The notes: generated by a model from the letters alone, not told the origin. Shown: positions 49,187 through 50,295, counted from the first letter of the stretch. The stretch is 64,000 nt of DNA from Candidatus Hydrothermarchaeota archaeon (GCA_046760505.1 JBHIEG010000006.1:1-64000); one strand, 5' to 3'. Made by a program: numbers and translations.

Positions 49187-50089
49187 TTAGACCGCCACTT
49201 CTAAATCCAATTTTTCAACGAGTTCCTTGTATCTGTTTCTTACAGTTACCTCTGATGTTCCAGCTACACCAGCAACTTCTTTCTGAGCTCTTCTCTCGCC
49301 TTGTAGAACGCTGGCAATGTATATTGCGGCTGCTGCAATTCCAGTTGGGTCTCTACCCGCAATCATTTCTTTTTCTATTGCCAGTTTTATTATGTCAATT
49401 GCCTTTGATTGAACTTCTCCAGAAAGACCTAATTCGCTGGAAAATCTGGCTACATATTCAATAGGACTTGTTGGCATGAGTTTTAATCCCAATTTCCTAC
49501 CCAGTAGCCTATAGATCTTACCGAGTCTCTTCTTATCTATTCTGGCTGCCTCAGCAATTTCACCCATGCTTCTCGGTACCTTATGCTGTCTGCATGCAGC
49601 GCAGAGAGCTGCTGCTACCACACTCTCTATGGATCTTCCTCTAATTAAATCACTTTTTACCGCTTTTCTGTAGGTTAGAGCAGCGGTTTCCTTTACATGT
49701 CTTGGAAGATTCAATTGCGATGAGATGGATTCCAGTTCTGAGAGGGCGAAAGCAAGATTTCTCTCCGTTGCATCGGATAATCTAACCCTCTGCTGCCACT
49801 TCCTCAACCTGTATAGTTTGGCTCTCTGACCTGGCGCGAGCTCGTTACCTCTTCCATCCTTTGTACTGAGGTCTATTGTAGTAGAGAGGCCTTTATCGTG
49901 CATCACATAGGTCATGGGGGCTCCTACTCTACTCTTAACAACCCATTGATGATGGTCGTGAGCCCTCCATTCTGGACCCGTATCAATCATATCGTGTTCA
50001 AGAACAAGCCCGCAGGATTTACAGATTAGTTCCCCTCTTTTCTCGTCCTTCGCTACCTTAGGACTCCCACACTCCGGGCATTTTTCCGT
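49187..50089 (-). CDS. tfb: Transcription initiation factor IIB (TFB); Zn ribbon lies upstream of the ORF-track start
   Basis: In-frame upstream EKCPECGS...[14 protein letters not shown], then [37 protein letters not shown] at 50089 after SD GGAGGTG. Confidence 0.93.
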
Positions 50090-50295
50090 TTTCTACACCT
50101 CCATCTTATTATTAATGTGTTTGTACTTCTTTATAAAACTTATGTTTCTCCTATACCCCAACGTGATTGTAATATATAAGTCTTTCGGTATAGATATAGA
50201 TAGATAACCTGCAGAGAATTTTTGTATAACAAATTTTGCATGATGAATGAAATATAGGGGAATAAAAAACAAATGAAACAAGATTGATTTGATAA

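Follow-up and report, generated by a model that had tools for sequence, protein, structure and literature searches.

Putative ACG start codons of tfb and rpoK in a Candidatus Hydrothermarchaeota archaeon and of tfb in an Asgard clade

The tfb and rpoK genes and their surroundings

The window, by which we mean the whole stretch of DNA analysed, is 64 kb long, has 38.8% G+C and comes from a Candidatus Hydrothermarchaeota archaeon; its top protein matches are MAG proteins carrying that label. It contains a CODH/ACS cluster, genes for aIF2-alpha, GINS, primase, PCNA, TFS, a thermosome subunit and a family-B DNA polymerase, and type IV pilus genes. The sole RNA gene found in it by Rfam and ARAGORN is one tRNA-Gln, and neither program found an initiator-like tRNA in the 64 kb. 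The CODH/ACS (cdh) cluster (24019-32663, minus strand) looks complete and has three genes for CbiA/ParA-type P-loop NTPases interspersed.

We surveyed the ORFs of the window with Pfam (69 stop-to-stop ORFs) and took codon usage from 56 long ORFs. The Pfam matches of the genes other than tfb and rpoK start at or after a canonical start codon, which is often TTG. This codon is a common start in the window and is found immediately 3′ of Shine–Dalgarno (SD) sequences in the genes for PCNA, a CdhD-like subunit and PurH. Given the frequent TTG starts, the organism already tolerates weak start codons. The features discussed below are collected in Table 1.

Table 1. Coordinates of the features under discussion; positions are counted from the first letter of the window
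Feature	Position	Strand	Remarks
tfb CDS from ACG	49187..50089	-	300 codons + TAA 49189-49187
Proposed tfb start codon ACG	50087..50089	-	Sole near-cognate codon between TAG and Zn ribbon
SD of tfb, GGAGGTG	50096..50102	-	6 nt (TAGAAA) 5′ of the tfb ACG
tfb Zn ribbon	50012..50080	-	CPEC 50080-50069, CKSC 50023-50012
Mini-ORF ATG GAG GTG TAG (M-E-V-stop)	50093..50104	-	In the tfb frame, overlaps the SD
TATA-like TTTATAAA	50130..50137	-	Read from the sequence
Second TATA-like TTATATAT	50171-50178	-	
rpoK CDS from ACG	48692..48922	+	76 codons + TAA 48920-48922
Proposed rpoK start codon ACG	48692..48694	+	Aligns with Met1 of RpoK relatives
SD-like GGGGGA of rpoK	48680..48685	+	6 nt 5′ of the rpoK ACG
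Thermosome gene	47049..48680	+	Pfam Cpn60_TCP1, 601.8 bits; last codons ATG GAG TTG TAG
Predicted RNA hairpin	48675..48704	+	-11.9 kcal/mol at 37 C, z = -2.48
12-mer copy ATGGAGTTGTAG	48669-48680	+	Thermosome gene end
12-mer copy ATGGAGGTGTAG	50104-50093	-	Mini-ORF
TTG-start examples in the window	20486-21235, 26207-27505, 37776-39329 and others	-	
Asgard ACG tfb loci	ACG ~9965 in most		L004, L005, L006, L011, L016, L018, L019, L022-L029, L032, L037

The product of tfb is recognized as TFB by NCBIfam model NF001658 (457.8 bits against a cut-off of 384), with residues 2-300 matching profile positions 13-311 of 312, and its ORF is intact as far as the terminal TAA. At the 5′ end, the minus strand reads ATG (50104-50102), GAG, GTG, TAG (50095-50093), AAA, ACG (50089-50087), GAA, AAA and then TGC CCG GAG TGT (50080-50069). 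The tfb frame holds no ATG, GTG or TTG in the 34 codons from TAG to its first canonical codon, ATG 49990 (MIDTG). Both Cys pairs of the Zn ribbon are in frame and lie wholly upstream of this first canonical start. We also considered a frameshift from the out-of-frame ATG 50082 and rejected it, the frame of this ATG ending after 7 codons and the first Cys pair being skipped.

An archaeal TATA box is centred ~26 nt upstream of the transcript start. Thus, the TTTATAAA box would place the start of the tfb transcript near 50107, ~3 nt 5′ of ATG 50104, and the predicted mRNA would be nearly leaderless; the TTATATAT box would place it ~40 nt further upstream, with a predicted leader of ~60 nt. RNA structure around the tfb start showed no excess over shuffled sequences (z = -0.56, 81 nt).

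The tfb gene of the window is divergent from polB and convergent with a small B-box-like Zn-finger gene; gar1 is not adjacent. The Zn-finger gene (48931-49185, TTG start) sits between rpoK and tfb, and its end is 1 nt from the tfb stop. Among 80 listed archaeal tfb loci, none has rpoK within the fetched flanks.

The product of rpoK is assigned to RpoK/Rpo6 by the NCBIfam equivalog NF002208 (101 bits against a cut-off of 57). The match covers profile positions 4-58 of 60, with position 4 at codon 48704. In the rpoK frame, a canonical start codon is absent between the in-frame TGA 48665 and ATG 48764, and this ATG, the first canonical codon, falls within or after the conserved core. The stop codon of the thermosome gene (TAG 48678-48680) is located 11 nt 5′ of the rpoK ACG. 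In the hairpin predicted here, the thermosome stop and the rpoK SD are paired with 48695-48704, and the ACG is in the loop. Folding statistics lend modest support to this predicted structure, 4 of 200 shuffled sequences folding equally well; the hairpin, which has G-U pairs, was not reported by a DNA inverted-repeat search of the window.

The situation at the two genes had been described in an earlier note on this DNA. Every statement that the note makes about the sequence of tfb and rpoK holds on re-reading of the minus and plus strands; rpoK, which it placed ~1.4 kb away in the same ACG state, is separated from tfb by 1397 nt from ACG to ACG.

To judge by the composition of the window, the earlier note was also right in calling the double ACG an unlikely product of chance. 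ACG makes up 144 of the 17,119 codons of the 56 long ORFs (0.84%), or 17.7% of their Thr codons. The motif GGAGGTG has three copies in the window, with both strands counted: one at a normal ATG gene (the copy at 1274, 5 nt before the gene start ATG 1286), one before a decayed SnoaL-like gene and one at tfb. The motif GGGGGA is found also 6 nt before the thermosome ATG (at 47037) and 4 nt before the ATG of a cytochrome gene (at 42600). Since both motifs precede ordinary ATG genes, the SD types and spacings of the two ACGs are among those in use in this organism. When SD-preceded ACG codons that open an ORF of at least 50 aa were sought throughout the window, 12 cases emerged, with no third convincing ORF start of this kind; the other cases were rejected as lying within genes, antisense or after a usable GTG (pilin gene, GTG 59842).

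No canonical start follows the copy of GGAGGTG at the SnoaL-like gene (1621-1627, plus strand). In the ORF concerned (1561-1803, plus strand), a SnoaL-like N-terminal piece (KNKAIVRRF) runs straight into the C-terminal third of the domain (Pfam profile positions 89-126). This ORF, which adjoins an intact SnoaL_2 paralog (1808-2326), has the look of a decaying gene with an internal deletion.

Relatives of the two genes and the Asgard tfb loci

Of ten RpoK relatives fetched full-length, five begin with M-[Y/F]-P-x-x-[K/R] right before the conserved core, where the window has T-F-P-A-N-R; the N-termini of the remaining five are longer or shorter. When relatives' N-termini such as M-Y-P-P-K-K-L... 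and M-F-P-K-K-Y-T... are lined up with the window, the ACG comes to lie exactly on their Met1 (P0125, P0127, P0131, P0139 and P0192).

The closest full-length TFB (P0001, 85% identity) begins with M-E-V-CPEC, as against T-E-K-CPEC read from the ACG in the window; the tfb ACG aligns with Met1 of this protein provided that no indel is assumed. The M-E-V of the mini-ORF in the window is the same as that of P0001, so there is an alternative alignment, with a 15-nt indel between ATG GAG GTG and the Zn ribbon. Such an indel, with ATGGAGGTG directly abutting TGC in P0001, would fit as well as ATG aligned to ACG. Given that P0001 begins with MEV-CPEC, the mini-ORF ATG at 50104 may be the ancestral start.

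The closest relative of the window's TFB in the protein database (P0002) is 98% identical; it is stored as a protein of 242 aa that starts with MTYVMHDKG. An RpoK of 52 aa (P0231) starts with MGAP and is 79% identical over that part. For both entries the longest contig recorded is the same one, of 20,928 nt. As both proteins are annotated short, gene callers evidently met no canonical start there either, and the annotated protein lengths suggest, indirectly, that the closest relative shares the same state at both genes. A state shared with a second genome would speak against a sequencing error. On the other hand, the 85% identical TFB starts with Met, so that the state in the lineage of the window is evolutionarily shallow, and the ACG there might be a lesion that the organism tolerates rather than a device. 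The earlier note had named relatives with ATG at both genes as a finding that would count against its reading: the 85% TFB relative does have Met, while the 98% relative appears not to.

We compared these genes with a control set of 80 listed TFB loci (genome contigs), all of them at most 61% identical to the tfb of the window; the 85% and 98% relatives are outside this set. A canonical start upstream of the Zn ribbon is present in 61 loci and absent from 17, and two loci are cut at a contig edge. All the 17 loci without a canonical start are labelled Asgard (Hermodarchaeota, Promethearchaeota, Thorarchaeota, Odinarchaeota or ‘archaeon’), and all the 17 have AGGAGG, 9 nt and an invariant ACG. 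The ACG is followed by a variable codon (ACG, ACA, ACT or CCG), then by AAA GAA GTA and, further on, by TGT CCN GAY TGY. TAA stands immediately 5′ of the ACG in four of the 17 loci and just 5′ of AGGAGG in three others. Where the window has the 12-mer before ACG, the Asgard loci carry GGAGGCGTAG. The gene upstream is gar1-like, is in the +1 frame and has its TAA 12-14 nt past the A of ACG; therefore, the gar1-like gene and tfb overlap (region from about -170 to +15 around the ACG). Ordinary archaeal tfb genes that are led by an SD, or follow gar1, have the same layout with a canonical TTG, in contrast to the ACG of the Asgard clade and the window: in the sister Asgard loci L010 and L031 the SD is followed by TTG, and the Hydrothermarchaeota locus L038 has GAAGGAGGA, 6 nt and a TTG inside the end of the gar1-like frame.

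Selection was assessed in 16 Asgard tfb genes of the same length (73-94% nucleotide identity). Codons 7-21 of these genes are past the gar1 stop and upstream of any canonical in-frame start. The pN/pS ratio was 0.32 in codons 7-21, 0.22 in codons 13-21 (the first half of the Zn ribbon) and 0.04 in the rest of the gene. Low pN/pS upstream of the canonical starts, a mark of purifying selection, indicates that the Asgard Zn ribbon is translated. Among the database proteins, the 16 clusters that are at least 94% identical to a TFB of the Asgard ACG clade are without exception 277 or 288 aa long and lack the first CxxC; these short entries begin with VRDY..., VKDY... or MNCG... Relatives at the next level of identity (76-80%) are full-length proteins.

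The 80 loci and the window were also screened for ORFs of at least 80 codons that open with SD+ACG and have no canonical start nearby, which gave 26 hits, 18 of them at tfb; the same screen with control codons gave 4-26 hits each, as raw counts without one-by-one inspection. The 17 Asgard loci are mutually related and thus do not represent 17 independent events. Moreover, their ACG is shared with gar1-like codons (AAA CGA), and the second frame may account for some of its invariance. Judged by these comparisons, the Asgard clade is an independent recurrence of SD+ACG on tfb, and this recurrence lifts the case above a single-MAG oddity.

ACG as a probable start codon and the alternatives

The sequence establishes the integrity of both genes, the lack of canonical starts, the placement of the ACGs with respect to SD and orthologous Met1, and the recurrence in Asgard archaea. 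All this lends partial support to the earlier note: the intact genes with ACG in place of a canonical start are borne out by comparison, and the translational control through initiation stringency that it inferred may be one reading of them. No second copy of tfb or rpoK, as its mention of paralogs would imply, was seen within the 64 kb. From these observations we infer decoding of ACG as a start, coupling to the upstream frames and any regulatory purpose. Both tfb and rpoK are probably functional, with translation beginning at an ACG located 6 nt behind the SD. The reading of ACG as a start appears well supported by comparison.

In the mechanism that we propose, which most simply covers tfb and rpoK of the window as well as the Asgard tfb, the initiator Met-tRNA would read ACG as a near-cognate start. 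Pairing between the SD and the anti-SD would fix the small subunit with ACG in the P site, and the fixed position of the subunit would offset the mismatch at the middle base of ACG. The output would be expected to stay below the level obtained with ATG and to be sensitive to fidelity factors (aIF1).

An upstream ORF is found beside the ACG in all three contexts: the thermosome gene and the mini-ORF end before it in the window, and the gar1-like gene overlaps it in the Asgard loci. In both genes of the window, the upstream stop is within ~14 nt of the downstream start (11 nt at rpoK, 3 nt at tfb). Because the upstream frame ends just 5′ of the ACG in both genes, terminating ribosomes may supply part of the initiation. 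Reinitiation would then follow termination at the thermosome stop for rpoK and at the stop of the M-E-V mini-ORF for tfb. At rpoK, the terminating ribosomes may also open the hairpin that hides the SD; the hairpin is compatible with a putative thermosome–rpoK coupling and would make rpoK translation depend on ribosomes that finish the thermosome gene. The two ACGs of the window are preceded by a near-identical 12-mer, ATGGAG[G/T]TGTAG; candidate explanations of this likeness are a shared function, shared descent and a coincidence driven by the SD. Reinitiation from the mini-ORF, ranked ‘less likely’ in the earlier note, deserves more weight, in view of the shared 12-mer and of a TAG that precedes the ACG by 3 or 11 nt.

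The lesion mentioned above, in its full form, would mean that both genes are damaged by a T-to-C change in the start codon, that truncated products are made from ATG 49990 and ATG 48764 or no products at all, and that copies elsewhere do the work. The Met of the 85% relative makes the change recent, and the visible genome is limited to 64 kb, which leaves room for paralogs elsewhere. However, both ORFs are intact, as are both SDs with their spacing of 6 nt, and neither the Zn ribbon nor the conserved core, encoded before the internal ATGs in 34 codons of tfb and 24 of rpoK, shows any change. The same state, in addition, seems to be present in a second genome, and the corresponding Asgard region is under purifying selection; damage is thus unlikely. 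An error of sequencing, assembly or consensus, with T as the true base at 50088 and 48693, could be suspected from the origin of the window, evidently an uncultured organism with MAG proteins as the closest matches. Yet the same T-to-C error would have had to strike twice within 1.4 kb, each time precisely in a start codon; the two proteins of the closest relative are shortened alike, and 17 independently assembled Asgard contigs carry the same codon. We consider such an error very unlikely.

The proximity of the predicted transcript start to ATG 50104 bears on another explanation, in which translation of a leaderless mRNA starts at this ATG and continues by amber readthrough, ACG being an ordinary Thr codon. 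The TTTATAAA box (50137-50130) would set the transcript start at a distance of ~3 nt from this ATG, and P0001, with its M-E-V directly before CPEC, allows the ATG to be ancestral. Against it, TAG is an ordinary stop here that ends 12 of the 56 long ORFs, including the thermosome gene, and no pyl genes were seen among the 69 ORFs scanned (64 kb); the 64-kb window thus shows neither the avoidance of TAG as a stop nor the pyl genes that go with amber recoding. Readthrough fails, moreover, for rpoK, where the frame is closed upstream by TGA and offers no ATG there, and it fails for the Asgard loci, which makes it quite unlikely as an explanation. Editing of the mRNA from C to U, an idea of the earlier note, would turn ACG into AUG and restore a canonical start in every case. 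The sequence gave it no support, no deaminase-like gene being present among the 69 ORFs scanned (64 kb), and we know of no mRNA editing in archaea. The accessible part of the recoding review PMC8211752 places the non-canonical translation events demonstrated in Archaea only at elongation and termination. We hold editing to be highly improbable. For the Asgard loci, one may formally suppose instead that ribosomes in the gar1-like frame slip by −1 at A-AAG, which would produce a Gar1-TFB fusion in place of a product initiated at ACG.

Known systems and the meaning of a possible archaeal ACG start

Initiation at ACG is established in eukaryotes and their viruses. As proposed for the window, the near-cognate ACG of these systems is read by the initiator Met-tRNA in a favourable context. 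Unlike the eukaryotic cases, the codon in the window would be positioned by an SD, not by scanning and Kozak context, and would be the only start of its gene, not the start of an alternative isoform. In bacteria, infC, the gene for IF3, has an AUU start behind a normal ribosome-binding site, and its output is tied to initiation fidelity. The genes discussed here are similar to infC: all are essential genes of the information machinery in which an ordinary ribosome-binding site is followed by a weak (here, proposed) start codon. The infC gene regulates itself through IF3, which is the fidelity factor; for TFB and RpoK, which act in transcription, a loop of this kind could only be indirect. A regulatory purpose, such as an output kept low or dependent on fidelity as for infC with its AUU, might be supposed by analogy.

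The factors that would set the efficiency of ACG are partly known. According to the accessible part of PMC4705826, eIF1 governs the efficiency of near-cognate codons in eukaryotes, its archaeal homologue is aIF1, and non-AUG codons are disfavoured by aIF1 (AUU in Saccharolobus). The upstream ORFs that end near the downstream start in the window (3 and 11 nt), as well as the gar1-like gene that overlaps the tfb start in Asgard archaea, resemble known termination–reinitiation systems of archaea and bacteria. In Haloferax volcanii (the accessible part of PMC10666635), reinitiation at a distance of 13-14 nt reaches ~40-60% of native coupling and is lost at ~22 nt; the gene pairs studied there overlap by 4 or 1 nt, overlaps that imply ATG or GTG starts in the pairs covered by that part of the source. 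The mini-ORF of the window differs from these coupled pairs in having only 3 codons.

The reviews PMC7531240 and PMC4705826, in their accessible parts, name no archaeal starts other than AUG, GUG and UUG. In the full-text literature outside most subscription journals, we came upon no paper that describes ACG as a start in archaea or tfb with a non-canonical one. Three candidate sources, PMC2194725, PMC4574771 and a 2026 bioRxiv preprint on ribosome profiling, were rejected, ACG being in them a primer, a flanking triplet or a Thr codon.

The comparisons made here raise the possibility that archaea do start genes at ACG and that this has been overlooked. Annotation pipelines accept only AUG, GUG and UUG as archaeal starts, and an ACG start would explain the database entries of TFB in which half of the Zn ribbon is missing. 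If a transcription factor as essential as TFB had a conserved ACG start, the archaeal start codons would number four, and this would include the Asgard archaea, the prokaryotes closest to eukaryotes; it is in eukaryotes that initiation at ACG is established. The tfb and rpoK genes with ACG would offer a concrete substrate for studies of aIF1-dependent fidelity and of reinitiation in archaea, and they make it testable whether the transcription apparatus is set translationally.

A broader proposal can be made, tentatively and with rather less than even confidence. ACG would be a genuine, selectively maintained archaeal start that was repeatedly adopted for TFB (in the window for RpoK as well) and long kept in the Asgard clade, tying the supply of the transcription machinery to initiation fidelity and coupling. 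If this is true, current gene callers systematically shorten these essential proteins, and the ACG starts would be an archaeal counterpart of the AUU of infC and of the near-cognate starts of eukaryotes.
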